Part shown: positions 9,149-37,991 of the stretch, in pieces
Numbering within the stretch: the stretch's first letter is position 1
How the letters are laid out: every line of letters begins with the position of its first letter
Source: Alphaproteobacteria bacterium
GTDB taxonomy: Bacteria; Pseudomonadota; Alphaproteobacteria; JBCCNR01
DNA: 42,101 nucleotides
Reading direction: 5' to 3'
NCBI GenBank assembly: GCA_047627635.1
Contig: JBLHTX010000003.1
Span: forward strand, 1 to 42,101
Notes under the pieces: model-generated
What the model was told of the DNA's origin: nothing
The model's database searches: none
The model's input: the letters and a program-made list of their open reading frames with translations, nothing else
Made by a program: the position numbers and the translations under genes

Positions 9149-10498
9149 ATGGATACTACCCCTGAGGCATATAAAGAGATTTCACCTGATACATCCCCTG
9201 ATACATTACAGGGGCATCGTCAAAAAGCAGAAGACAAGACAATATCACGCTTGATGTTTAAGTTTCCTAAGTTAACTTATAATATTCAAAGCCGTGGTGA
9301 TGGTCGTAATTCGTCAAAGCTTGCCTTTAATCATCAAACCATATTAATTTGCAGTATTTTGTCATTAAGTTGGGCGGGGCTTGTGATGGCTTATGGTGCA
9401 GGCGTGATTGCAACACTTGGTAACCATGAAATTGCATCTTTTGTGTATGCTTCACTCTCAATGATTATCTTATTTCCAATCGCACTTATTTGGGGCGGAT
9501 TTTTTGTCTATCATTATGCTAATCAATCCCACAAAGCCAATAGTGCAATTCTTGAAGCCGCCCGTGTTTTAGGAAGCCCAGCACTTGTTGCCGCTGATGA
9601 CGTGAAAACCTTATCACTTGCGGTGGGGCATGAGCTTAATCAATTACGAGGCTCGATGCGTGACATTGAAGACCGTATGCATGGTATTTCAAAAAACATT
9701 GATAATGAAATTAATACATTAAACGAAAGCAGTGACAATCTTCATAAAACTTTATGTGATGTGTCAGGCACTATTCGTGCCGAGCGTGATGCGATTGTTG
9801 ATTTAATGAAAATTATAAAAACCGAAAATCAAAATGCACACCATTATCTTGCAGAAAAAAATAAAACCCATATTCAAGTCAGCGATACGCCAACAGATGC
9901 AATTATAGACCCCCCCAAAGAAACAGGTCAAATTGCAGGCGGTGAAATCACTTATATGGGTGATTTACGCCAACCTGTACCACAAAATGCATCATTAAAT
10001 GCATCATTAAATGAATCATTAAATGCATCATTGTCGCAGACCAAAACACGCGTCACACACCCAGTCGAAACAGCCCAACCCATACAGCCTGCAACTCAGC
10101 AAACAGCCCAAAGCACAGTGCAATCTTCTTATGTTGCCAAGCCAGAAGCCCTTATTTTACGTCGCGAGCGTCAGCTTTATGAAGGGGTATGTGCGTTAAC
10201 TGTTGATTTAAATCGGGAATTGGGGATTGTCCTGCCACAAGATTTATGGTCACGTTATATGCGCGGCGAGCGTCATATTTTTGCAGACCATTTATTTACA
10301 AAACTCACAAATGATTTTATGGCATATCAAGAAAAGCTTGATACCGATAATGTCCGTAAATTATGCAATCAATTTATCTCCCGATTCGAAACATTGCGTG
10401 AACGCCTTTTTGATGAGCCAGACATTGCCGTGTCTGAATATCTAGAAAATTCAGGCATTGGCAAAGTTTATAGTGTCTTATCTGTCGAATATGTTTGA
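9149..10498 (+). CDS. Membrane-anchored coiled-coil protein, TipN/GPR(RgsE)-like
   Basis: Two N-terminal TM segments, a coiled coil, a Pro/Gln/Thr linker and a C-terminal LWSRYMRGERHIF...FISRFE...YLENSGIGKVYSVL domain. Confidence 0.6.
   Translation: MDTTPEAYKEISPDTSPDTLQGHRQKAEDKTISRLMFKFPKLTYNIQSRGDGRNSSKLAFNHQTILICSILSLSWAGLVMAYGAGVIATLGNHEIASFVYASLSMIILFPIALIWGGFFVYHYANQSHKANSAILEAARVLGSPALVAADDVKTLSLAVGHELNQLRGSMRDIEDRMHGISKNIDNEINTLNESSDNLHKTLCDVSGTIRAERDAIVDLMKIIKTENQNAHHYLAEKNKTHIQVSDTPTDAIIDPPKETGQIAGGEITYMGDLRQPVPQNASLNASLNESLNASLSQTKTRVTHPVETAQPIQPATQQTAQSTVQSSYVAKPEALILRRERQLYEGVCALTVDLNRELGIVLPQDLWSRYMRGERHIFADHLFTKLTNDFMAYQEKLDTDNVRKLCNQFISRFETLRERLFDEPDIAVSEYLENSGIGKVYSVLSVEYV
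9985..10032. repeat. In-frame tandem repeat, 4 x 12 bp (AAATGCATCATT)
   Basis: Encodes NASL-NASL-NESL-NASL; one mismatch in unit 3. Confidence 0.9.
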
Positions 10499-15702: not shown

Positions 15703-16569
15703 TTATTTAGTTTTCTTAGATGAAGGTGTCCGAGCATTCGCAGAATTTTTTGATTTTCTTTTTTTTAATGCTGACGCCATAACATCTTGAAGGTGCGTTA
15801 CGGTGGCAAGCTCCTCGGGCTCAGATTTATTAATTTGCGGTAAAATATTCAGACGCTTAGCAACCTCGGTATAGCCAGCGGCTAGATCACCAGTATTTAA
15901 ACGAAATAAATCTTTATCGAATGCTTCGCCTGTTTTTAAATCTCGCAGACGGCAATTATCAGGACTAATTTCATCCGCAAGCACAAGCTCGGGGAAAATA
16001 TCAAGATCTTCAATAAATTTTGTAACACCAAATTCATATTTAATATCAGCCAAATCAAGACCAATTGCCGTGAATAAACCAGATAATATATCGGTAATAC
16101 GCAGTGCTAAGTTATGAATCTGCTCTAGATCCTCTTCCTCGCAAAACCCCAATACAATGGCCGCCTCTGGAGAAATCAAAGGATCACCTAAAGTATCATC
16201 TTTTAAGAAAAACTCTACAAGAGGCTCATCCAGCGTGCTCCCCTCCTCTATGTTGTAACGCTTGCATAATGACCCATAGGCCTTGCGACGCACAACAACC
16301 TCAAGCGGTATAATATCCACAAGCTTCACAAGCTGTTCACGCATATTTAAGCGTTTCACGTAATGCGTTGCAATGCCGCAGCTTTCAAGACGCTCCATAA
16401 TAAAGCTACTAATCATGTTATTCAAAACACCTTTACCTTCAATAAGCGCATGCTTTTGCTTATTGAAAGCGGTTGTGTCATCTTTGAAATATTGAATAGC
16501 AGTCCCTTTTACAGGGCCTTCAAAGATAGTTTTTGCTTTACCTTCGTAAAGCATTTTGCGATTTTTCAT
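15703..16569 (-). CDS. purC: SAICAR synthetase
   Basis: LYEGKAK, FKDDTTAF, PLEVVVR, DIKYEFG and LADEISPDNCRL motifs; start moved to MKNRK at 16569; basic C-terminal extension. Confidence 0.96.
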   Translation of the reverse strand: MKNRKMLYEGKAKTIFEGPVKGTAIQYFKDDTTAFNKQKHALIEGKGVLNNMISSFIMERLESCGIATHYVKRLNMREQLVKLVDIIPLEVVVRRKAYGSLCKRYNIEEGSTLDEPLVEFFLKDDTLGDPLISPEAAIVLGFCEEEDLEQIHNLALRITDILSGLFTAIGLDLADIKYEFGVTKFIEDLDIFPELVLADEISPDNCRLRDLKTGEAFDKDLFRLNTGDLAAGYTEVAKRLNILPQINKSEPEELATVTHLQDVMASALKKRKSKNSANARTPSSKKTK

Positions 16570-16732
16570 GTCATATCCATTTCTGATACGCTCACAAAGG
16601 TTAATAAGATTGTGATCCAAATAGTGTCCTCCAGAAAAGGTAAAAATACCTTTTAAATTTTGTACAAAATATGTTAACAAAACGATAACAGCTATTTAAT
16701 TTATTTTTATTTCTATACTGCAAGGTATTTTT

Positions 16733-17116: not shown

Positions 17117-17881
17117 TTGTTAAATAATAATATCAAGTATTGTAAATATTATGGTCCATTGACGCAAAGTGACCATATTAAGCATACGATATTATTAAAA
17201 TTAAATCGACTGAACACAGAAATTACACAGGAAAAAGCGCTCAGTAACCCCATCAGTATTGCACTTAAATCGCCTTATTGGCATAACACAACCAATAATG
17301 CATTAGCAGAATTTAAAGCAATTAAACGCAATCATATTCGCAAAAATATTTTATTAAAACTTGTTAATAACCCCGATAAATCACACTCAAGCCCTATTAC
17401 ACCAAAAAGCAATAAAAAATACAACTACAAACATCATACTCAAAATAATATTTTATATTGCATTATAAAAACATTTTTATTAAATATTTACGATGCAATG
17501 ACAGGCTATGTAAAAAAAGCAAACCAACCAACATTACCTGCCTTAAAAAAAGACCTGATAAATGTTGCAAATACCATAATAGATGGGCAATTCAGTACCC
17601 TAGAAAAACATCCATATTTTAGAAAAAATCACCATATTTTAACGCTTAATTATATGTCTTCTAATAATAATTTCAGTAAAAAACTATTTAAAATTATTGT
17701 GTCAGCCTATATAAAGCGCATTACTATCCACCCCCATGACGCACAAAATACGGATGCCCTATATGATGCATTAAGTGATTACATAGGGCAACTTAAGCAA
17801 CTCCCTAGTCTGAGTGTTTTACCATCACGAAGAACGGGATATTTAAAGCAATATATGCATAATTTAAGTGATCAAACTTAA
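17117..17881 (+). CDS. Hypothetical basic protein (ORFan-like)
   Basis: 254 aa open frame in very AT-rich DNA with its own promoter and AGGA RBS. Confidence 0.65.
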   Translation: MLNNNIKYCKYYGPLTQSDHIKHTILLKLNRLNTEITQEKALSNPISIALKSPYWHNTTNNALAEFKAIKRNHIRKNILLKLVNNPDKSHSSPITPKSNKKYNYKHHTQNNILYCIIKTFLLNIYDAMTGYVKKANQPTLPALKKDLINVANTIIDGQFSTLEKHPYFRKNHHILTLNYMSSNNNFSKKLFKIIVSAYIKRITIHPHDAQNTDALYDALSDYIGQLKQLPSLSVLPSRRTGYLKQYMHNLSDQT

Positions 17882-23340: not shown

Positions 23341-24246
23341 ATGGAAAAAGATCGGGCGATTACTTTAATAAGCAAAAAAGTAAATAACAATGCAGAAAAA
23401 ATGGTATTTTACGCATATCAAATCATGAAAAGATTAAAGCCTAACTCTAAGCCCACTCTATATTTACAAAAATTAAAAAATATTCTCAAGGAAGCGAGTA
23501 AAGGAGATTCAAAAGGTGCTATTCAGCTGATTAAAAATGCTACCGCAGAAATATTAGAAGAAAAAGATAAAACAACAACAAAACTTCTTTCTAGAATCAT
23601 AGAGAAAACGAACTTAAATTCAGGCACGGTGCAAATTATTTGTTGCTTTATGACATCTAAGGTTTTATCCAAAAAACTGCCCGATAAAAATCCTTTAAAA
23701 GAACCTGAAAAATTAACCAATAACACAGATAATCATAAAGCTTTACCTAATGATACTGATTTTCTAGATCAAATCGGATTAGTTGTGGATAATATGTGTG
23801 GTGGTTTTGCTGATAATACACTCGATACTGTTCAAAACAACCTTGTTGAACATATACTTTTAAGTGATGAAGAATATGATGCATTTAAGTTAATTATCAA
23901 AAACAACTATATTTCGGAGTTATTACACAATTTTTTCCCACAAGAGGATAACAAAGCTATAATAAATGCACTCGATAAAAATTTAAATATTACCCCAAGG
24001 TCATTAATAAAAAAGACTTTATCCAATTTATCTCTCTCTAGTATAGGGAGCTCATTGAGCCAAAGATCAATATTAGCAGGGAGGCCCGATGATACTTTTT
24101 ATCGAGAGCAAGAAGCCACACCCAAAACATCAAAAGGCATTAATCCTTTTTCAAGAAGAAATTCAGGGGCATCTCAGTCTTCTGGTCAATCAAGTCAGCA
24201 ACCAACTTATAATTGCATCACTCAAAACCGCTGTATAATCTCATAG
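23341..24246 (+). CDS. Hypothetical protein with a Ser-rich tail and C-terminal CaaX motif
   Basis: 301 aa ORF with AGGA RBS; ends ...TQNRCIIS*. Confidence 0.7.
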   Translation: MEKDRAITLISKKVNNNAEKMVFYAYQIMKRLKPNSKPTLYLQKLKNILKEASKGDSKGAIQLIKNATAEILEEKDKTTTKLLSRIIEKTNLNSGTVQIICCFMTSKVLSKKLPDKNPLKEPEKLTNNTDNHKALPNDTDFLDQIGLVVDNMCGGFADNTLDTVQNNLVEHILLSDEEYDAFKLIIKNNYISELLHNFFPQEDNKAIINALDKNLNITPRSLIKKTLSNLSLSSIGSSLSQRSILAGRPDDTFYREQEATPKTSKGINPFSRRNSGASQSSGQSSQQPTYNCITQNRCIIS

Positions 24247-27728: not shown

Positions 27729-28529
27729 TTACCCTTTGGTCAATGTTTGTGCAGTTTGTGAGATTGATTTACCAACATCTACAAAGCCTGATGCATAAAG
27801 AGAATATTCATAACTACTATTCATCACTTGAATATAACTTTCAATTTGTCGGTCAATAGCATTTTGCTCAGATTCTTTGGTTTTTAAGCCACCTGATAGA
27901 CTATCATATTCTGAAATCATGGAATCCTTAGCACGATCAAAGGCAGAACCTTTACTTTTATTCGCTAACATATCCGAGTTCTCTTCATAGGATTGTGTAT
28001 TGGAATGTACTTTTTCAATCAAACCTGACAATGTATCACCTAGGGTATTCGGATTCGTTAAGGATCCAACATCATAAGCAGGCGCTGTAGCATTTAAACG
28101 ATCATAAGTTGTTAAATCTGACGGCAAAGTCGCAGGAGTTGTCGCAAGATCACTCGGAATTTGAGAGTAATTTGTATGCACACCCTCCATTGATATTTTA
28201 ATTGCCTCATCCGAAGGGCTCATATTACCACTATCAACCATGGTGTTATTCATAAAATTAGGCCTTTGCTGTGATTCACGCGCCATATTAGTAACAATTG
28301 TATTACCATAAGAACTGCTAAAGTCACCCATTGAAATTGCCTTGGTAAGACCCGTATCACTGTTGCCAGCATGATAGTTTTGATCCTTAGCAAGCGTTTC
28401 TGCCTCAATTTCATCTCGACGCTTAACGCCAGAACCACCCGTTGACCCTGCCCATTCATGGCTATTATTCATTTGAAAAGATGTGAAATCAGCTGTAAAA
28501 GGCATTGTTGTTGTAATTGCTTCTGTCAT
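27729..28529 (-). CDS. Hypothetical protein with a T3SS inner rod (SctI/YscI/HrpB)-like C-terminus
   Basis: Ser/Thr/Asn-rich N-terminus, LGDTLSGLIEKV helix, and terminal VGKSISQTAQTLTKG*. Confidence 0.5.
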   Translation of the reverse strand: MTEAITTTMPFTADFTSFQMNNSHEWAGSTGGSGVKRRDEIEAETLAKDQNYHAGNSDTGLTKAISMGDFSSSYGNTIVTNMARESQQRPNFMNNTMVDSGNMSPSDEAIKISMEGVHTNYSQIPSDLATTPATLPSDLTTYDRLNATAPAYDVGSLTNPNTLGDTLSGLIEKVHSNTQSYEENSDMLANKSKGSAFDRAKDSMISEYDSLSGGLKTKESEQNAIDRQIESYIQVMNSSYEYSLYASGFVDVGKSISQTAQTLTKG

Positions 28530-29758
28530 AATAATAACTTACTTTTATTTGATTTTTTATGTGTCGCTTTAAGTGCTTTTATCTTTAGGTTTTTAAGAGA
28601 TACTTGAATATCTTCTAATGAATCTTTAGTAAAATCAGCTGTTTTTTTCTTCCAATAATTCATACCGTAATCGACTAAAAGCTGTTCCCCTTTTTTAATG
28701 TCACGGTTAGTTACAAAGGAAACAAGATCAAATTTTTTGGCGTCCTTAACATATTCAAGATCAGGGTATTCAAGCGATTTAGCGTAAATAGCAACAATAT
28801 TACATTTTTTTACAATATCTTGCGCAATGCTATATGCCGTACCTGCATAAACTGTTCCAGAATTTACACAGCTCAAATCATTTCCATACTGAAAACCACT
28901 GACAGATGGTATCTTAACATCTGGGAAAGAATAAACATATGTTTGGAAGCCTGTGCTATGTTTTTTTGCATATTCAAGTTTATCTTCTTGGCTCGTAAAA
29001 TAAAGCCCCGAATAGTAACCAAGCACCGTAAAAGCAGGAATATTTTGTTTCGCAAAAACAGCATTTTGCCCAATTAAAATATCAGGCCATTTTTGTTTTT
29101 TACATTCTTTCTTCGACACTGGCTTCATATCTGTTAATGATTCAAGATATTCACCGCGTTTTTGATCTGATAAATTTGCAACATCATTAAGTTGAACCAA
29201 TAAGTTTTGTTGTTTCTGTGGCGTGTTCAATGTCTGTTTAAAATTTTTAAAATCAATAATAGTTTTAGGAGTATAGACTGCTTCGTTAGGATTATCGTAG
29301 GCACGACAAATTGGCATATTATTTTGGGTTTTATGTTCTTGTAAAATTTTAAAATGAAGAGAGGAGGTAGTGTTTTTATTTTGCTTAATTCTTTGTATTA
29401 TTTTATCGAAGTTTCTTTTTATAGGAGGTGATTTTATAATTCCTATCGATGAAATAGTACTTGGTATAAATAGCAATCCTTTATTGGGGATTGATAAAGA
29501 TGCGGCTTGGTGGCACATTATTTTAAGATTTTTAAATACGCTTAAGCGTATTTTTAGCTCTTTTTGATGCACTATAATATTGTTAAATACTTGACAAAAT
29601 TGAGATAAACTTGCAATAAAACGAGATGTATCATAATTACAAATAATTAAAGCATATATTTCAGTTGTCATTTTTTCAGGATTAATGACTTTTATTTTTT
29701 GGTTGATAAATGGTAAATAACTTTTAACTGAATAATTATTTTGAAGCTGGTGTGACAT
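28526..29758 (-). CDS. SET domain protein (putative lysine methyltransferase)
   Basis: GQNAVFAKQNIPAFTVLGYYSG, GNDLSCVNSG and RDIKKGEQLLVDYGMNYW motifs; Lys-rich C-terminus. Confidence 0.85.
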   Translation of the reverse strand: MSHQLQNNYSVKSYLPFINQKIKVINPEKMTTEIYALIICNYDTSRFIASLSQFCQVFNNIIVHQKELKIRLSVFKNLKIMCHQAASLSIPNKGLLFIPSTISSIGIIKSPPIKRNFDKIIQRIKQNKNTTSSLHFKILQEHKTQNNMPICRAYDNPNEAVYTPKTIIDFKNFKQTLNTPQKQQNLLVQLNDVANLSDQKRGEYLESLTDMKPVSKKECKKQKWPDILIGQNAVFAKQNIPAFTVLGYYSGLYFTSQEDKLEYAKKHSTGFQTYVYSFPDVKIPSVSGFQYGNDLSCVNSGTVYAGTAYSIAQDIVKKCNIVAIYAKSLEYPDLEYVKDAKKFDLVSFVTNRDIKKGEQLLVDYGMNYWKKKTADFTKDSLEDIQVSLKNLKIKALKATHKKSNKSKLLL

Positions 29759-30160: not shown

Positions 30161-30514
30161 TCAAACAAATTCAATTAGGGCGACATTAGCATTATCGCCA
30201 TGTCTTTTACCAAGCTTTAGAACACGAGTATATCCACCTGGGCGTTCAATGTAGTTTTTTGCAATCTCAAAGATATTAAAAATAACATCTTCATTAGATC
30301 TTAATTTACTAGATAACAGACGAAAGCTGGCTTGATTGTTGCCTTTTCTAGCAATCGTAACAAGACGCTCTACATAAGATCTTAAGGCCTTAGCACGCAC
30401 TAAGGTCGTTTTAATTCTCTTATGCTGAACCAAAGATAATGTCATACTATACAATAATGCTTCGGTATAATTTGTATCTTTAGTTAATGTTTTATTCGCA
30501 AATTTATGACGCAT
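30161..30514 (-). CDS. rplQ: 50S ribosomal protein L17
   Basis: MRHK, IKTTLVRAKALR and RPGGYTRVLK motifs; follows rpoA. Confidence 0.95.
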   Translation of the reverse strand: MRHKFANKTLTKDTNYTEALLYSMTLSLVQHKRIKTTLVRAKALRSYVERLVTIARKGNNQASFRLLSSKLRSNEDVIFNIFEIAKNYIERPGGYTRVLKLGKRHGDNANVALIEFV

Positions 30515-30522
30515 ACGGACCT

Positions 30523-31533
30523 CTAAATTTTCTCTTCAAGTTTTTTTGATAAATCTTCAATGTTCTCAGGTGGCCAATCATCAATGATCATACCAAGTGT
30601 TAAGTTTAACTCATTCAAAATTTGTTTAATCTCATTTAAGGATTTTCGACCAAAATTGGGTGTCTTCAACATTTCTGCTTCAGTTTTTTGGACAAGATCT
30701 CCAATATATATAATGTTGTCATTTTTAAGACAATTTGCTGATCGTACTGATAATTCTAGCTCTTCAACACGCTTCAACAAAACAGGATCAAAGGACAATA
30801 CATGTTCCTCTTCACTATTTTCAACAGCGACATCAGAATGTGAAAAATTAATAAAGACTGATAATTGATCTTGTAAAATCTTTGCTGAAATACCAATTGC
30901 ATCTTCTGGCGTAATTGAACCATCAGTTTCGACCTCAAGAACTAACTTGTCATAGTCAAGTTTCTGACCTTCACGTGTTTTTTCAATATCATAGGCCACA
31001 CGTCTAACTGGAGAAAAATATGCGTCTAGGTAAATTTGCCCAACAATATCATCTTTCTCAATCAACGCACTATCTAAATATCCCTTACCACTATCTACCG
31101 TCATATCAATAGATATTTTAACGTTATCCGAAATAGTAAACAAATGATGATCAGGGTTCAAAATCTCAACGCCATCTGGACAAGTAATATGTGACGCAGT
31201 GACCTCAGCTGGACCTGTTATATTCAAATGAATATGCTTACTGCCCTCAACATGTTTAAGAAGAGATAGCCCTTTAATATTCATTAAAATATGAAGAACG
31301 TCTTCTGAGACACCCGAAATAGTAGAAAACTGATGCAAAACCCCATCAATTTTCACAGATGTCACTGCTGATCCCTGAAGTGAAGATAACAGAATACGAC
31401 GCAAGGAATTGCCCAAGGTGATACCATAGCCTGTTTCCAATGGCTCAAAAGCAAACGATGCTTTATCGTAATTATTTGTTTTAACCACGTTTTTTGTAGG
31501 CTTAATTAAGCTAAGCCAATTTTGTTCAATCAC
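30523..31533 (-). CDS. rpoA: RNA polymerase alpha subunit
   Basis: [33 protein letters not shown] and [12 protein letters not shown] motifs. Confidence 0.98.
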
Positions 31534-31576
31534 TTGAAGCCTCTTTTGTTTATTATACCTTTAACATATCTTTAAT

Positions 31577-31969
31577 TTATATACGTCTTCTTTTAGGCAA
31601 TCTACAACCATTATGCGGTATTGGTGTTCTATCACGAATACTTAAAACTTCAAAATCTTGATTAGCAAATGCACGCAGAGAAGATTCTCTTCCTACACCA
31701 GGCCCTTTAATTTCAATCATAACCTTTTTTACTTGAAAGTCTTTTGCCTTACGACAAATTTCTTCAGTTGCAAGTTGAGCAGCATAAGGCGTAGATTTTC
31801 TTGACCCTTTAAAACCATTTGATCCTGAGGTGGCCCAAGCAAGAACATTACCTGCCGTATCCGTTAAAGATACCAAAGTATTATTAAATGTAACATTAAT
31901 TTTTATAATAGCCAAGGGTACATTAATTTTACTTTTTTTAGGGCTTGATGACTTTTTGTTAGCAACCAT
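31577..31969 (-). CDS. rpsK: 30S ribosomal protein S11
   Basis: FNNT, GFKGSRKSTPYAAQ and TPIPHNGCR motifs; start at 31969. Confidence 0.96.
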   Translation of the reverse strand: MVANKKSSSPKKSKINVPLAIIKINVTFNNTLVSLTDTAGNVLAWATSGSNGFKGSRKSTPYAAQLATEEICRKAKDFQVKKVMIEIKGPGVGRESSLRAFANQDFEVLSIRDRTPIPHNGCRLPKRRRI

Positions 31970-31971
31970 GA

Positions 31972-32316
31972 TTATGACACTCTCTTTCGTGTTTTTGCAT
32001 TTGTATGCGTTCTTTGACCGCGACATGGTAACCGTAAGCGATGACGAACACCTCTAAAGCATGCTATATCTTGTAGTCTTTTTATCGCCATTGTTTTTAC
32101 ACGACGCAGGTCCCCTTCGACGGAAACGTTTTGGTCAATATACTCTCTGATTTTAATGATATCTTCACCATTTAAATTTTTAACGCGAGTATTGAGATCA
32201 ATATTAAGAGCAATACAAATCTTTTTTGAAATATGCGAACCAATTCCATAGATATATCTTAATGATACAACTACTGCTTTATCTGTTGGTATATTAACAC
32301 CAGAAATCCTTGCCAT
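31972..32316 (-). CDS. rpsM: 30S ribosomal protein S13
   Basis: [22 protein letters not shown] and RGQRTHTNA motifs; GGAG RBS. Confidence 0.96.
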
Positions 32317-32338
32317 TATTAACTCCAATATATAAGGA

Positions 32339-32998
32339 TTAAACTTTTTCTTTTAAACAATCTATAACTTTAGAAAACTCTTGAGATATTTCATTTACAC
32401 TACCTTTGCAGTCTATGTCAATCAAAACCCCAAGGCTACGATAGTAATTTACGATTGCATCATTTTCATTATGAAAAATAGTCAATCGCTTTTTGATTAC
32501 ATTCTCACTATCATCAGAACGCGTTATAAAATCATTCCCATTACAGTGATCACAGACACCGTTAGTTTGTGGATTTACAAAATATTTATTATAAACAGCG
32601 CCACACTGAGAACATACATATCTGCCTGATATACGTTTTATTAAAACCTCATCATCAAGAGACATATTCACAACAATATCTAACTTTTTATTTATTTTAG
32701 ATAAAATTTTATTAAGTGCAAAAACTTGGTCTATGTTTCTAGGATAACCGTCGAACAAAATGCCCTTACTCACATCCGTTAATTCATTCTCAAGTAAAAC
32801 CTCAACAATGTCGTTAGAAACTAGTTCGCCCTTACTAATAACATTAGAAATTTTCTTACCTAAGTCAGTTTGTAGGCTAGCCTCTCTACGTAAAAGGTTT
32901 CCGGTAGTTATATAATTTAAATTATACTTTCCAACAACAAAACTAGCTTGTGTTCCTTTGCCGACACCTGGAGGACCTATTAATAATATATTTATCAT
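32339..32998 (-). CDS. adk: Adenylate kinase (zinc-binding LID type)
   Basis: [20 protein letters not shown]...CDHC and RSDD motifs. Confidence 0.96.
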
Positions 32999-33000
32999 AT

Positions 33001-34176
33001 TTAATTCATCACCGAATTAGTGTTATGTGAATAACTCATATATTGAATACGACGGACAATATCAATTACAACAACGACCAGAATTACAGCTGATACACCG
33101 GATACGATTACATTAAAACCATTGTAGCGTAATAAATCAGGTGCTAAAACCATTAGACCTAAGTACAAAACAGCTATGTAATTTAGCTTATTAATAACAA
33201 CATCAAGATACTTTTTAGTTGTCAAGCCTGGCCTATTATTTTCTAATATAATATTCGATTTTTTTAAATTATTGGACATTTCTTCGGTATTCATCACAAA
33301 AGGTGTATAAAATGCAACAAAAAAGACAACAAACGCTAATGTTACAAGTGTTAATAGAATTGAAATATCATATCCAAATTTATCAAAAATATAAGGAGCC
33401 AAGGATGTTGATAATAAAGCTGAAAAACTCATTGCAAAAATTAAGGGTAAAACACCCGAGTTGTTGATTTTCAAGGGAAGTATATCAGATTTTTTACCTT
33501 TATTGTAACCATCTCTAAATTTTGTAGATGGATAAGAAAGCTTTAAAGGTCTAAAGGAAAGTTCAATAAGGCATATAACAAAGAGCAAACCAAGGATAAA
33601 TATACAATGACCAGAAAATCCTATTGGCGAAACTTCGCCTGTTTGAACACCGTAAAATAAATCACTCGCTGATAGATAGAGATGCTCAATAATAGATAAC
33701 ATAATTAATATCGAAGCACCATTTCCGAAGCCAAATGTTGTGATTATTTTAGCAAACCAAACCATAATAAAAGATCCAGCAACCAGGAAAACGATAATAG
33801 CAGAGAATTCTATGTATGAGGTATCAACATCAGTAGAGTATTTAGCAAACATAAAGGACTGTATTATTGCAATAATTAAAGTAAACAATAACGTTTGACT
33901 AGATACAAATTTTTTATTTTTTAAATCATTGGCATAATTTGTATCAGAAAGTATGAATTTTAGAAGTTGAACAATTATACCTGCTGTAATGTATGGAATA
34001 ATTCCCAATGTAAACAGTGAAAGCCTTTGTAAGGCTTGCTGATTTAGAACGCCAGTTTTAGTAACTGTTGAAAGGAAATCAGATACAGATCCGTCATTTA
34101 ACATAAACGGAACAGTTATAAAATTTCCCATCCTATACATAAAGAAAACAACAAACATTAAAATAAATATGCGCAT
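33001..34176 (-). CDS. secY: Preprotein translocase SecY (short, divergent)
   Basis: SLFTLGIIPYITAGIIVQLL, GFGNGAS, LPLKINNSGVLPLIFA and RPG motifs; canonical position between rplO and adk. Confidence 0.9.
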   Translation of the reverse strand: MRIFILMFVVFFMYRMGNFITVPFMLNDGSVSDFLSTVTKTGVLNQQALQRLSLFTLGIIPYITAGIIVQLLKFILSDTNYANDLKNKKFVSSQTLLFTLIIAIIQSFMFAKYSTDVDTSYIEFSAIIVFLVAGSFIMVWFAKIITTFGFGNGASILIMLSIIEHLYLSASDLFYGVQTGEVSPIGFSGHCIFILGLLFVICLIELSFRPLKLSYPSTKFRDGYNKGKKSDILPLKINNSGVLPLIFAMSFSALLSTSLAPYIFDKFGYDISILLTLVTLAFVVFFVAFYTPFVMNTEEMSNNLKKSNIILENNRPGLTTKKYLDVVINKLNYIAVLYLGLMVLAPDLLRYNGFNVIVSGVSAVILVVVVIDIVRRIQYMSYSHNTNSVMN

Positions 34177-34232
34177 AATTGTTCCATAAAAGGTTTTAAT
34201 ATAATACTATTCGATAAAATATTATATTTTTC

Positions 34233-34448
34233 TTATTTTTTATTCATGCCACGCTTTGGAAGGCGTCTATGTAAGGGCATTTGACCACCTTCAAATCCGA
34301 CAGATGAATAACCAGACCTAGATTTTGCACCCTTAACACCTCGACAAGAAGTCTTGCCCATGCCAGATCCGATACCACGACCAACTCTTTTTTTTGTCTT
34401 TAGCTTTAACTTAGGTAGTGAATTTAAACTTAATTCATTATTATTCAT
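34233..34448 (-). CDS. rplO: 50S ribosomal protein L15, truncated (N-terminal part only, ~71 aa)
   Basis: [14 protein letters not shown]...[17 protein letters not shown] followed by a stop after MNKK. Confidence 0.88.
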
Positions 34449-34461
34449 AATCATATTCCCT

Positions 34462-34974
34462 TTAAGCAGCACGATTGGAGACGATTTCAGATATTTTTTT
34501 ATCTCTTTTCAATGCGATATAACGCGGTGATGTTTGTTTTTGCAAACCATCAAAACAAGCCCGAACCAAATTAAAAGGGTTAGAAGAGCCTAGTGATTTT
34601 GCAACTATGTCTTGAACACCAAGTAAATCAAAAATTGGTCTCAAAGCAGCACCAGCAATAATACCACGCCCTGTCTTTGATGTTTTCAAAAGAACATTAC
34701 CTGCTCCCCAACGACCAGTGGAGTTATGGTGAAGTGTCTTTCCATCACGCAACGGAATACGAACTAGCGAACTTCTTGCACGTTCAGATGCTTTTCGTAT
34801 TGCATCTGGAACTTCTTTAGCTTTACCATGCCCGAACCCAATACGGCCTTTTCTATCGCCTACGATAACAAGAGCTGCAAAACTTAAGGTACGTCCACCT
34901 TTAACGGTTTTAGAAACGCGGTTTATAAAAACTAATTTTTCGTATAACTCATCTTTATTACGATCATCTGTCAT
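34462..34974 (-). CDS. rpsE: 30S ribosomal protein S5
   Basis: [25 protein letters not shown] and KSLGSSNP motifs. Confidence 0.97.
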
Positions 34975-34978
34975 AAAA

Positions 34979-35332
34979 TTATACCTCTATTCCTTTGATA
35001 CGTATTTGCTCTACAAAATGTTTTACTAATCCATGAAAGCGATAAACTCCGCGATCGAAGGTAATGTTATCAAAACTAGTAAAACCCATGCTCATGATTT
35101 TTTCAGCAAAGCTCTGTGCTAAGTCAGTAACTCTATCACGAGAGGACTTTTCAAAAGAGGATACCATCTGAGTACTCAGTGAAGCAATAACATTTCCAGT
35201 GTTATTTTCAATAAGAGAGGCATAATAATGTTTATTTGATTTCAAAAAATATACACGCAGGCAATCTACAGCGAGGCGATTATCTCTACGTAAAATTTTG
35301 GTTTTTCTTTTTAAAAAAGTAGAACGTTTCAT
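34979..35332 (-). CDS. rplR: 50S ribosomal protein L18 (divergent)
   Basis: SNKHYYA and [10 protein letters not shown] motifs; lies between rplF and rpsE. Confidence 0.85.
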
Positions 35333-35334
35333 AC

Positions 35335-35865
35335 TTATTTCTTCTTACCTTCTTTTGTAATAATAATCTCACCTTGATACAATATACCCTTAGCGTGGTA
35401 GTTATCTGGTATTTTGTACGCACGTATCTCTGCAGCGACTTGACCGACTCTTTGCTTGTCAATACCCTTAATGGTAATAATAGTATCTTTTTCAACTGTT
35501 AATTTTATATCACTTGGGATCAAGTAATGTATTTTATGACTATAACCGAGCGACAAAATCAAAGTATCTTTCTCAATGAGACAACGATAACCCAAACCCT
35601 TTAATTCTAAAATTTTAACATGCCCTAATGTAACGCCAGCAATAGCGTTTTTTAAAAGAGAATGCAAAAGACCAGCATTAGCTGAGGATTTTTTAGGATT
35701 TTCGGTATTAAATTCAATTTGATTATCATTTACAGACAACCCCATAAATGGAAAATTTGGAACGTTAAGAGAGCCCAAATTTCCATTAATAGTACATACT
35801 TCAGAGCCAACTGTTACACTAACGTCTTTTGGCAATAAAATCGGCTTTTTAGATAGTCTTGACAT
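35335..35865 (-). CDS. rplF: 50S ribosomal protein L6
   Basis: MSRLSKKPI, GLGYR, LGYSH and GIDKQRVGQVAAEIR motifs. Confidence 0.96.
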   Translation of the reverse strand: MSRLSKKPILLPKDVSVTVGSEVCTINGNLGSLNVPNFPFMGLSVNDNQIEFNTENPKKSSANAGLLHSLLKNAIAGVTLGHVKILELKGLGYRCLIEKDTLILSLGYSHKIHYLIPSDIKLTVEKDTIITIKGIDKQRVGQVAAEIRAYKIPDNYHAKGILYQGEIIITKEGKKK

Positions 35866-35885
35866 ATAGTTACCTTATCTTAATA

Positions 35886-36272
35886 CTAAAAAACTTGACA
35901 TAATACTTCACCACCAACACCAAAATCTCGGGCTTGGTTATCAGTTAAAATACCTTTTGGTGTAGATACTACGGTAACACCTAATCCATTATAAAAGGAA
36001 GGTATATCCTTAGCACCCTTATAAACACGGATACTTGGCTTTGAAACAACATTAATTTTTTTAATAATTGATTCATTCTTAAGGTATTTAAGATGAACGG
36101 TCACCTGAAAGGTATCTACAACAAACTTTTGTATATATCCCTGCTCTTCAAGTAGCTTTAAAATTGATACAACAATTTTTACATTTGGTAAGATTGTTGT
36201 CAAGTGATTTCGTTGTGCTGCATTTTTAAGGCGAACAACTAAATCACTTACATGATGGTTTGTGAATTTCAT
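35886..36272 (-). CDS. rpsH: 30S ribosomal protein S8
   Basis: SKPSIRVY, GLGVTVVSTPKG and GVGGEVLC motifs. Confidence 0.95.
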   Translation of the reverse strand: MKFTNHHVSDLVVRLKNAAQRNHLTTILPNVKIVVSILKLLEEQGYIQKFVVDTFQVTVHLKYLKNESIIKKINVVSKPSIRVYKGAKDIPSFYNGLGVTVVSTPKGILTDNQARDFGVGGEVLCQVF

Positions 36273-36290
36273 AAAATTTGTCCTAATAAT

Positions 36291-36596
36291 CTACCAACTA
36301 CTTTTCTTTACCCCGGTAATATCGGAAAAAGAAGCCAGTCGGCGAAGTTCATTCCGACATAAGCCGAAACGACGATACACACCACGAGCTCTGCCTGTTA
36401 TAAAGCAACGATTAGAAACACGGGTTGAGCTTGATGCGCGCGGAAGTAATGCAAGTTCTTGACTTAACTTGAAAACCATCTCTGCATTTTCTTTATTTTT
36501 TTGTATTGCAAGCTTAATGTCATGACGCTTGGTAGCATATTTTTGAACAATAATTTTTCTTTTTTCATTACGATTAATCATACATTTTTTTGACAT
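36291..36596 (-). CDS. rpsN: 30S ribosomal protein S14 (long form)
   Basis: [20 protein letters not shown]...GVKKSSW. Confidence 0.96.
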
Positions 36597-37180
36597 TATT
36601 TGCTCGCAGATTTTTTAAATGGAAAATTAAATTGCTCTAAAAGTGCTTTAGAGTGCTCTTTATTAGAAGTACTCGTTACAATAGTAACATTCATACCCCA
36701 TGAAAAATCAATATTATCGTAATCAATCTCAGGAAAAATAGTCTGATCTACTAAACCAAAATTAAAATTAGCGTGATGATCAAAATGTTTATTAGAATCA
36801 TACGCATTAAAATCTTTAATGCGAGGCATTGCAATGTTAATTAATTTATCAAGAAAATCATACATATTATCTTTACGTAAAGTAACCTTAACACCTAAAG
36901 GCATTCCTTCACGCAAGTGAAAGCCAGCTAAAGATCTACGCGCCTTGGTCATTACAGTAGACTGACCTGCTATAAGACTTAACTCACTTGAAAGTTTTTT
37001 TAACTTTTTTGAATCAGTAACAGCTGGACTATAGCAACTATTAAGTACAATTTTTTCTAGGTGTGGAACTTCCATTATATTTTTTAAAGAAAGTGATTCC
37101 TTAAGAAGTGATATAATTTTGCTATTATACTGCTCTCTATAACGAGAAGTATATTTGTCTGATAGAGTATTGCTTGACAT
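36596..37180 (-). CDS. rplE: 50S ribosomal protein L5
   Basis: [21 protein letters not shown] and IFPEIDYD motifs. Confidence 0.96.
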
Positions 37181-37187
37181 AAAAAAC

Positions 37188-37556
37188 CTATAATACTTCT
37201 GGGGCTAAAGAGAGAATTTTTGTCATTTTAAATTGACGAAGTTCACGCATGACTGGACCGAATACACGAGTTCCAATTGGTTCACCGTTATTATTAACAA
37301 GAACGGCGGCATGCCTATCAAAAGTGATATAAGAGCCATCACTACGAAGGTAATTGTTTTTAATGCGAACTAATACCGCTTTAAAAATCTGACCTTTTTT
37401 GACTTTTGAATTAGGAATGGCTTCCTTTACAACGCATACAAAGGTTTCTCCTACCCCTGCAATCTTTTTATGAGAGCCGCCTAATACCTTAATACACATA
37501 ATTTTACGAGCACCACTATTATCAGCGACAGTTACAATGGATTCTTGTTGTATCAT
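37188..37556 (-). CDS. rplN: 50S ribosomal protein L14
   Basis: [15 protein letters not shown] and SLAPEVL motifs. Confidence 0.98.
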
Positions 37557-37557
37557 T

Positions 37558-37974
37558 TTAAATGTCCCAAGCGTTAGAAATAATTTTACATTTTACAGGT
37601 AATTTCATTGCAGCCAAACGCAATGCTTCACGAGCAACGTCTTCAGGGACACCCTTTAATTCAAAGAGAATTCTTCCAGGTCTTACTTTAAAAACATAAT
37701 ATTCAACAGAACCTTTTCCAGAACCCATTCTAACCTCGGCGGGCTTTTTAGTAACTGGAATATCTGGAAAAACACGAATGAAAATTTGACCTTGTCTTTT
37801 CATCTGTCTAGAAATTGCACGTCTTGCCGCTTCGATTTGCCTAGCAGTTATACGCTCTGATTCAATAGACTTTAGACCAAATTCCCCAAAAGCTAATTCT
37901 ACACCGCGTGTTTCGCTACCAGTTATACGTCCTTTGCGCTGCTTACGCCATGCTAATTTTTTTGGCTGTAACAT
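37558..37974 (-). CDS. rplP: 50S ribosomal protein L16
   Basis: [13 protein letters not shown] and [12 protein letters not shown] motifs. Confidence 0.98.
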
Positions 37975-37991
37975 AATTCTACCTTAAACAT

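Follow-up and report, generated by a model that had tools for sequence, protein, structure and literature searches.

Four ribosomal protein genes are missing from the S10-spc cluster of a marine alphaproteobacterial lineage

The S10-spc-alpha ribosomal protein gene cluster of the alphaproteobacterial genome analysed here lacks four genes, rpmC (uL29), rpsQ (uS17), rplX (uL24) and rpmD (uL30), and their loss at this locus is real and confirmed. The window, by which we mean the whole stretch of 42,101 nucleotides (nt) under analysis, is the complete contig C3 of a metagenome-assembled genome, referred to as G000, which consists of 1,636,984 nt in 131 contigs with an estimated completeness of 83.84%, a contamination of 0.12% and a G+C content of 36.9%. 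The same operon carries a fifth change, a truncation of rplO (uL15), which was missed in an earlier reading of the window that was based on the sequence only. An ancestral deletion of the four genes, most probably with no copies elsewhere in the genome, is the explanation in which we place high confidence, and the same junctions recur in independent DNA from close and more distant relatives.

Emptied slots, a shortened rplO and their recurrence in independent DNA

The genes and spacers at the four altered positions are as follows.

37558..37974, minus strand: rplP (uL16), 138 amino acids (aa), of normal length; Pfam Ribosomal_L16, E 2e-51
37557..37557, minus strand: spacer between L16 and L14, 1 nt; the slot of rpmC (uL29) and rpsQ (uS17) in relatives
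37188..37556, minus strand: rplN (uL14), 122 aa; Pfam Ribosomal_L14, E 1.4e-48
37181..37187, minus strand: spacer between L14 and L5, 7 nt, GTTTTTT; the slot of rplX (uL24) in relatives
36596..37180, minus strand: rplE (uL5), 194 aa; Pfam Ribosomal_L5 and L5_C
34462..34974, minus strand: rpsE (uS5), 170 aa; Pfam Ribosomal_S5 and S5_C
34455..34461, minus strand: spacer between S5 and L15, 7 nt to the first ATG of L15 (34454) and 13 nt to the second; the slot of rpmD (uL30) in most relatives
34233..34454, minus strand: truncated rplO (uL15), an open reading frame (ORF) of 79 aa, about 73 aa from the ATG; only the N-terminal Gly-rich extension, ending at [11 protein letters not shown]
34177..34232, minus strand: spacer between rplO and secY, 56 nt, AT-rich; too small for the lost L15 domain
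33001..34176, minus strand: secY, 391 aa; Pfam SecY, E 1.4e-57, with profile positions 1-306 on residues 53-374

A gene-sized frame is absent from all three emptied spacers, and no remnants of the lost genes were found in them, in agreement with the sequence-only reading. That reading had also given the gap between rplP and rplN as 1 nt, with no L29 or S17, and the gap between rplN and rplE as 7 nt, with no L24; the sequence and the ORF listing yield the same values. Its figure of about 13 nt between rpsE and rplO, with no L30, applies to the second ATG of rplO, while the first is only 7 nt away.

For comparison, we used the corresponding region of 12 relatives within the class. The slot of L29 and S17 spanned 374-555 nt in these relatives as compared to 1 nt in the window, and the slot of L24 spanned 307-346 nt as compared to 7 nt. 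The L30 slot was 137-293 nt long in 11 of the 12 relatives, again versus 7 nt; the remaining genome, G031, has no L30 and an interval of -1 nt. With intervals so much longer in the relatives, the junctions in the window are not a matter of chance spacing. The earlier statement that the four genes fill these slots in nearly all Alphaproteobacteria agrees with the lengths of these intervals, apart from the L30 slot of G031.

The short L15 matched no Pfam family at E <= 0.001, and the C-terminal globular domain (PF00828) is absent. An alignment with the L15 proteins of the 12 relatives (144-221 aa by the first start codon) puts its end precisely at the border of that domain, so that the cut point coincides with the end of the rRNA-penetrating N-terminal extension and the start of the globular domain. 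What remains is recognisably uL15: the N-terminal Gly-rich extension characteristic of the family is present (RVGRGIGSG...GQKSRSG...EGGQMPL.RRLPKRG), the gene is in the slot before secY, and the protein is 50-75% identical to its relatives across the stretch matched by BLASTP.

Using the short L15 as a query against 5.8 billion proteins, we obtained 4,646 matches, of which the best 120 were listed and 14 of these were fetched. All 14 were 68-73 aa long; the C-terminus was [10 protein letters not shown][KR] in 12 of them and [10 protein letters not shown] in another, while the last one differed. The contigs that carry these homologues reach 220,831 nt, the identity to the query ranged down to about 70%, and at least 12 protein clusters had the same short end. 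One of these homologues (P0002) bears the source label 'large subunit ribosomal protein L15' at the Joint Genome Institute (JGI), and another (P0011) corresponds to the L15 of the relative at locus L021, described below, over the 48 residues visible there. The constancy in length down to an identity of about 70% shows that the truncated protein is under purifying selection. The downstream SecY comprises 391 aa as compared to 442 aa in G031, and its Pfam domain begins at residue 53; the N-terminus thus looks shortened, possibly through the very deletion by which rplO lost its 3' half.

A scan of metagenomes with L5 yielded 52 loci, three of which were close to the window (L019, L020 and L021). 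L019, which is 99% identical, has 1 nt between L16 and L14 and 8 nt between L14 and L5. L020 and L021 represent a relative that is 71% identical in eight cluster proteins (1108 columns), with intervals of 6 nt (L16 to L14) and 12 nt (L14 to L5) in L020 and of 8 nt (S5 to L15) in L021. The finding of the same junctions in a relative as diverged as this indicates that the loss is old and stable. In the window and L019, and also in the lineage of L020, the spacer between L14 and L5 consists of a G followed by a run of T, which fits a single ancestral deletion.

In a tree inferred from 26 sequences and 1118 columns, the window and the L020/L021 relative were sisters with an SH-aLRT support of 100, on a common stem of 0.59 changes per site, and the pair was placed inside the clade of the class, also with an SH-aLRT support of 100. 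Taken together, these sequences place the loss in a clade and not in a single genome. An L5 scan of genome contigs yielded 17 loci, all from other phyla and with a best identity of 50%, and hence no close relative.

Two Logan contigs also span the junctions. The first, from run X1, which is possibly the source sample, contains 2,440 nt with the junctions and shows 0 differences to the window; the second, from run X6 and a strain about 94% identical, is 716 nt long and bridges L14 and L5 with one extra A. Two further records (record 10 of run X5 and record 17 of run X6) had fewer than 31 letters on one side of the junction and were excluded as bridging evidence, and joints in the runs with sides of 20-26 letters were discarded as conserved motifs of other organisms. 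The runs carrying the stretch were from ice, seawater and marine metagenomes, with no RNA run among those listed; runs X8-X12, which have small shares, were left out of the habitat reading.

Search for the four families and alternative explanations

The Pfam models for L29, S17, L24 and L30 gave 0 matches at E <= 10 across the 131 contigs of G000, whereas each of these models matched in 11-14 of 14 control genomes. For each family we also built a model of our own, based on 11-12 relatives in the class, and searched with it, filters off (--max), 45,134 stop-to-stop segments of at least 20 aa from the six frames of G000. The best E-values were 0.26 (a 22-aa fragment), 5.3, 4.9 and 3.8 for L29, S17, L24 and L30, respectively. 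The two weak matches to the L29 model, with E-values of 0.26 and 0.36 on fragments of 22 and 26 aa, were discarded as noise, and the class-specific models had no match in the related metagenome contigs either. The search with hidden Markov models that had been proposed together with the first observation, short ORFs included, thus recovered neither uL29 nor uS17, uL24 or uL30 from G000. G001, which is the sister genome and, besides G000, the sole one of the genus, likewise had none of the four, a result that bears on relocated copies only since the cluster itself is unassembled there.

The absence of all four genes is rare in the class. Among 41 genomes, G000 and 40 relatives, L29 was identified in 33, S17 in 35, L24 in 36 and L30 in 35. 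All four were missing in G000, G001, G024 and G038, the last three of which are without the whole cluster; L14 is absent altogether from G001, G003, G024 and G038, so that the lack of the four genes in these assemblies reflects a gap at the locus and was left out of the evidence for the junctions. S17 was found in 392 of 401 class genomes. Of these genomes, 396 have a completeness of at least 90%, and 388 of them have S17; the eight exceptions are all multi-contig assemblies. This tally includes G216 and G041, which are flagged as unpublished and both have S17; no claim depends on them. As for individual genes, the complete genome G031 (L073; 1.4 Mb) has no L30 and its S5 and L15 genes overlap, while the 0.5-Mb genome G020 (L075) has no Pfam match to L29 and keeps S17, L24 and L30, showing that genes of this set can be lost singly within the class.

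Beyond these losses, the ribosome of G000 shows no sign of reduction. In G000, 20 further ribosomal proteins were verified with Pfam (L20, L35, L34, L9, S18, S6, L25, L32, S16, L19, S4, S15, L28, L33, S20, L36, S21, L11, L1 and L7/L12), and one more is presumably L10, as recognised by eye. Trigger factor is present in both G000 and G001. S7, S9, L31, S2 and S1 were not spotted by eye in G000, and no search was aimed at them. The coding density is about 87%, and the genome size, taken as assembled size divided by estimated completeness, is about 1.6-1.9 Mb. The earlier suggestion that a genome without obvious reduction has a streamlined ribosome is thus supported by the absence of the four families, the empty slots in independent contigs, an assembly of 1.64 Mb with a coding density of about 87% and the 20 other ribosomal proteins.

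We propose that the common ancestor of a marine, order-level lineage lost the four genes by deletion from its S10-spc operon, that they were not replaced in place, and that they are most probably encoded nowhere. At least four separate clean deletions would be required, of rpmC with rpsQ, of rplX, of rpmD and of the 3' half of rplO. The resulting ribosome would lack uS17, uL24, uL29 and uL30 as well as the globular domain of uL15 and would otherwise have the full bacterial protein set; we infer that the mature particle is still working. It would then function in the absence of both the assembly initiator uL24 and the 5'-domain binder uS17.

Several observations weigh against this proposal. Both assemblies are incomplete (83.84% for G000 and 87% for G001), and S12, a universal and essential protein, is missing from both of them, so that a gene can be missed twice. 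G001 had to be set aside as support for the junctions, being without L14 and L15 and with its whole S10-spc cluster unassembled. No 16S or 23S rRNA, which would contain the helices that bind the missing proteins, was assembled in G000 or G001.

It is also conceivable, but unlikely, that the slots on the ribosome are filled by something else, be it non-homologous proteins, extended neighbouring ribosomal proteins or expanded rRNA, in which case the particle would be remodelled and not smaller. The long stem of 0.59 changes per site leading to the ribosomal proteins of the lineage could be read in this way, and, according to a preprint (10.64898/2026.10.18.759926), host proteins join the ribosome of Hodgkinia, which has lost 9 bacterial large-subunit proteins. 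However, the gaps that the lost proteins left are, in the same source, reported not to be filled by the added ones, and the cluster proteins of the window are no longer than those of their relatives (L16 138, L14 122, L6 176, L18 117 and S5 170 aa), the only exception being a slight extension of L5 (194 aa versus 178-192 aa).

Somewhat less probable still is a relocation of the four genes to DNA that neither assembly has recovered, such as the unassembled piece with the str operon next to the tuf repeat. G000 does lack L27, L21 and L13, which G001 has, and rearrangements of the cluster occur in the class: in the complete genome G015 (contig C1), L29 and S17 are located at about 380 kb and L24 and L30 at about 1.47 Mb, the S10 and spc parts being split and about 1.1 Mb apart. 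The double miss of S12 can be explained by its position, since the str operon (S12, S7 and fusA) lies just beyond the tuf repeat where C3 breaks and the bin has no contigs below 3,015 nt, the size of its smallest; the same circumstances would also hide relocated genes. Yet relocation would demand at least three excisions (rpmC-rpsQ, rplX and rpmD) and as many re-insertions, every one of these into DNA that was missed twice, whereas three of the four control ribosomal genes missing in G000 (L27, L21 and L13, with S12 as the fourth) were recovered in G001. Moreover, the truncation of L15 represents real erosion of the same operon.

A mis-assembled or mis-binned contig, with junctions that exist in no real genome of such size, can practically be dismissed for all that G000 is a metagenome-assembled bin of 131 contigs, as the junctions recur in the separate JGI contig L019, in the diverged L020/L021 and in the Logan contigs of 2,440 nt (X1, possibly the source sample) and 716 nt (X6), C3 itself carries recA, argH, purC, aroQ and gatB, and in tetranucleotide use it correlates with the other contigs of the bin at r 0.989, which is the median (n = 59 contigs of at least 10 kb).

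Comparison with known reduced ribosomes

Ribosomal proteins are frequently lost in tiny genomes such as those of Hodgkinia, Tremblaya and Carsonella (Nikolaeva et al. 2020/21, PMC7782861), where uL24, uL29 and uL30 have been cleanly deleted from the S10-spc cluster as in the window; in Hodgkinia, these three are among nine missing large-subunit proteins (preprint 10.64898/2026.10.18.759926). In both cases, the losses fall on proteins that are dispensable in E. coli. The differences are considerable, however. The genomes in the survey are below 1 Mb, as compared to 1.64 Mb for the G000 assembly, and uL24 and uL29 were lost only in the drastically reduced ones. The frequently lost set comprises bL9, uL24, bL25, uL29, uL30, bL32, bL34, bL36, bS1, bS21 and trigger factor (PMC7782861), and tiny genomes first lose bL9, bL25, bL32, bL34, bL36, bS21, bS1 and trigger factor. 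The seven of these that were checked in G000, bL9, bL25, bL32, bL34, bL36, bS21 and trigger factor, are all kept there. Conversely, only nine ribosomal proteins were never lost in 214 genomes of less than 1 Mb, with uS17 and uL15 among them, while here uS17 is gone and uL15 is halved. The earlier statement that losses of L24, L29 and L30 are mostly known from extremely reduced symbionts and that loss of S17 is rarer agrees with this survey.

The small ribosomes of bacteria in the candidate phyla radiation (CPR) share other features with the window (Tsurumaki et al. 2022, PMC9297842). uL30 is absent from CPR bacteria so that the uS5 and uL15 genes are adjacent, uL29 is lost in some lineages, and uL15 is sometimes shortened at the C-terminus. 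In contrast to G000, in which both are present, CPR bacteria are often without uL1 and bL9, and the main text of the article contains 0 mentions each of uS17 and uL24. In the class tree, the lineage of the window nests in its own class among genomes with all four genes.

In mitochondrial DNA, ribosomal clusters have kept the operon order with the small genes missing, and most of the missing ribosomal proteins are nucleus-encoded and imported. In the window, by contrast, there is no hint of a host nucleus, and the contig contains recA, argH, purC and a regulator of the AraC type. The ATP/ADP translocase (TLC, PF03219), which would point to an energy-parasitic intracellular bacterium, had no match in G000 or G001, nor in any of the 14 control genomes, so that this search had no positive control and carries no information on lifestyle.

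A further parallel is experimental. uL15, bL21, uL24, bL27, uL29, uL30, bL34 and uS17 are individually dispensable in E. coli (Shoji et al. 2011, as quoted in PMC7782861), a set that includes all five proteins affected here. Those strains carry single laboratory deletions and have growth defects, whereas all the changes are combined in the window, are natural and have persisted in a clade with diverged members. What has been lost is the S10-spc-encoded portion of the dispensable set, which fits the fixation of tolerable deletions; under our proposal, these were fixed and followed by purifying selection on the trimmed operon, and the pattern looks like selective tolerance and not general decay. 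The combination of losses seen here (S17, L24, L29, L30 and half of L15) is otherwise known only in part, and then only from symbionts with extremely reduced genomes. A literature search retrieved no reports of natural bacterial uS17 loss; of two matching papers, one concerned experimental depletion and the other, judged by its title and abstract, was a review of ribosomal proteins in cancer. If the proteins are truly absent, we would have here the first description, as far as we have found, of a bacterial ribosome that naturally lacks uS17. Ribosome simplification as such is known, and the present case is a new form of it.

More speculatively, uL24 may have become easier to lose in a habitat that is always cold. 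At low temperature, the role of L24 as the initiator can be taken by L20 (PMC2672003, citing Franceschi and Nierhaus), a temperature-sensitive L24 mutation has been described (PMC2770661), and bL20 is present in G000; at low temperature, as in vitro, bL20 could start the assembly of the 50S subunit instead. The basis for this is the labels of the runs, four of which are maybe from the source sample, together with in-vitro work on E. coli. We regard a link between habitat and loss as a doubtful hypothesis. The broader scenario is just as tentative: a clade with normal-sized genomes could have had a minimised ribosome without substitutes fixed by permanent cold, where heat-sensitive defects never show. 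If so, the missing proteins would set an upper temperature limit for the clade.

When ribosomal proteins are lost, this is usually taken to mark a late stage of extreme genome decay, and the losses follow a fairly fixed order. This lineage breaks the order by keeping the proteins that are lost first and dropping those that are lost last or never (uS17 and half of uL15), although its genome of about 1.6-1.9 Mb is densely packed with genes, biosynthetic and regulatory ones among them. If confirmed, the finding would allow the need of a bacterial ribosome for its universal proteins to be tested in nature, would set beside the E. coli deletion strains a natural case in which the five changes occur together, and would provide a candidate system for studying the folding of the 30S 5' domain without uS17 and the initiation of 50S assembly without uL24. 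Marker-gene estimates of completeness and phylogenies based on ribosomal proteins will systematically undercount this clade.

The contig and genome around the cluster

The cluster occupies the right third of contig C3 on the minus strand, from S10 (41973) to L17 (30161) in the ORF listing. The gene order is canonical, and every member is present in order except rpmC, rpsQ, rplX and rpmD. Nine of the ten cluster proteins tested were supported by Pfam (L16, L14, L5, S14, L18, S5, S3, L6 and SecY); the other members, outside this test, are those we take them to be from their translations and order. L5 is slightly longer than in the relatives, as noted above, while L16, L14, L6, L18 and S5 are not. 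The remaining features of the cluster and the contig end are listed here.

30161..41973, minus strand: S10-spc-alpha cluster, with S10, L3, L4, L23, L2, S19, L22, S3, L16, L14, L5, S14, S8, L6, L18, S5, truncated L15, SecY, Adk, S13, S11, RpoA and L17
36291-36596, minus strand: S14; Pfam
35886-36272, minus strand: S8; ORF listing
35335-35865, minus strand: L6, 176 aa; Pfam
34979-35332, minus strand: L18, 117 aa; Pfam
41990..42100, minus strand: EF-Tu, of which the contig end holds the last 36 residues, closing with ...[17 protein letters not shown]

The contig is broken inside the duplicated tuf gene, of which the second copy is presumably the one at positions 33000-34190 of contig C4 of G000, as named by eye. 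Apart from the cluster, the window contains argH, aroQ, purC (15703-16680), a PALP/trpB-like gene, gatB, recA, recJ, queG and the AraC-type regulator, consistent with the previous listing of argH, trpB, purC and aroQ.

A protein of 410 aa with a SET (lysine methyltransferase) domain (E 7.4e-8) is encoded at 28526-29758 on the minus strand; bacterial SET-domain proteins are often tied to eukaryotic hosts. No Pfam family was assigned to four ORFs of 254-449 aa in the window, at 17117-17881, 9149-10498 and 23341-24246 on the plus strand and at 27729-28529 on the minus strand. Elsewhere in G000, three proteins that resemble one another at the N-terminus and are each about 800 aa long also had no Pfam family (L105-L107; C20 8562-10997, C29 10949-13375 and C33 7629-10034) and possibly represent a lineage-specific paralogous family. 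In G001, an 81-aa lysine-rich ORF upstream of L27 (L098; G001:C21:9800-11819) was not recognisable as L21; about 360 nt lie between L27 and the upstream end of contig C21, and L21 is located on the separate contig C239, an arrangement for which a rearrangement or an assembly join is possible. Finally, a protein of the RcGTA gene-transfer-agent type (GTA_TIM, E 3.4e-113, and Rcc01698_C) is encoded at positions 9696-13049 of contig C43 of G000 (L102), which fits the alphaproteobacterial affiliation of the genome.

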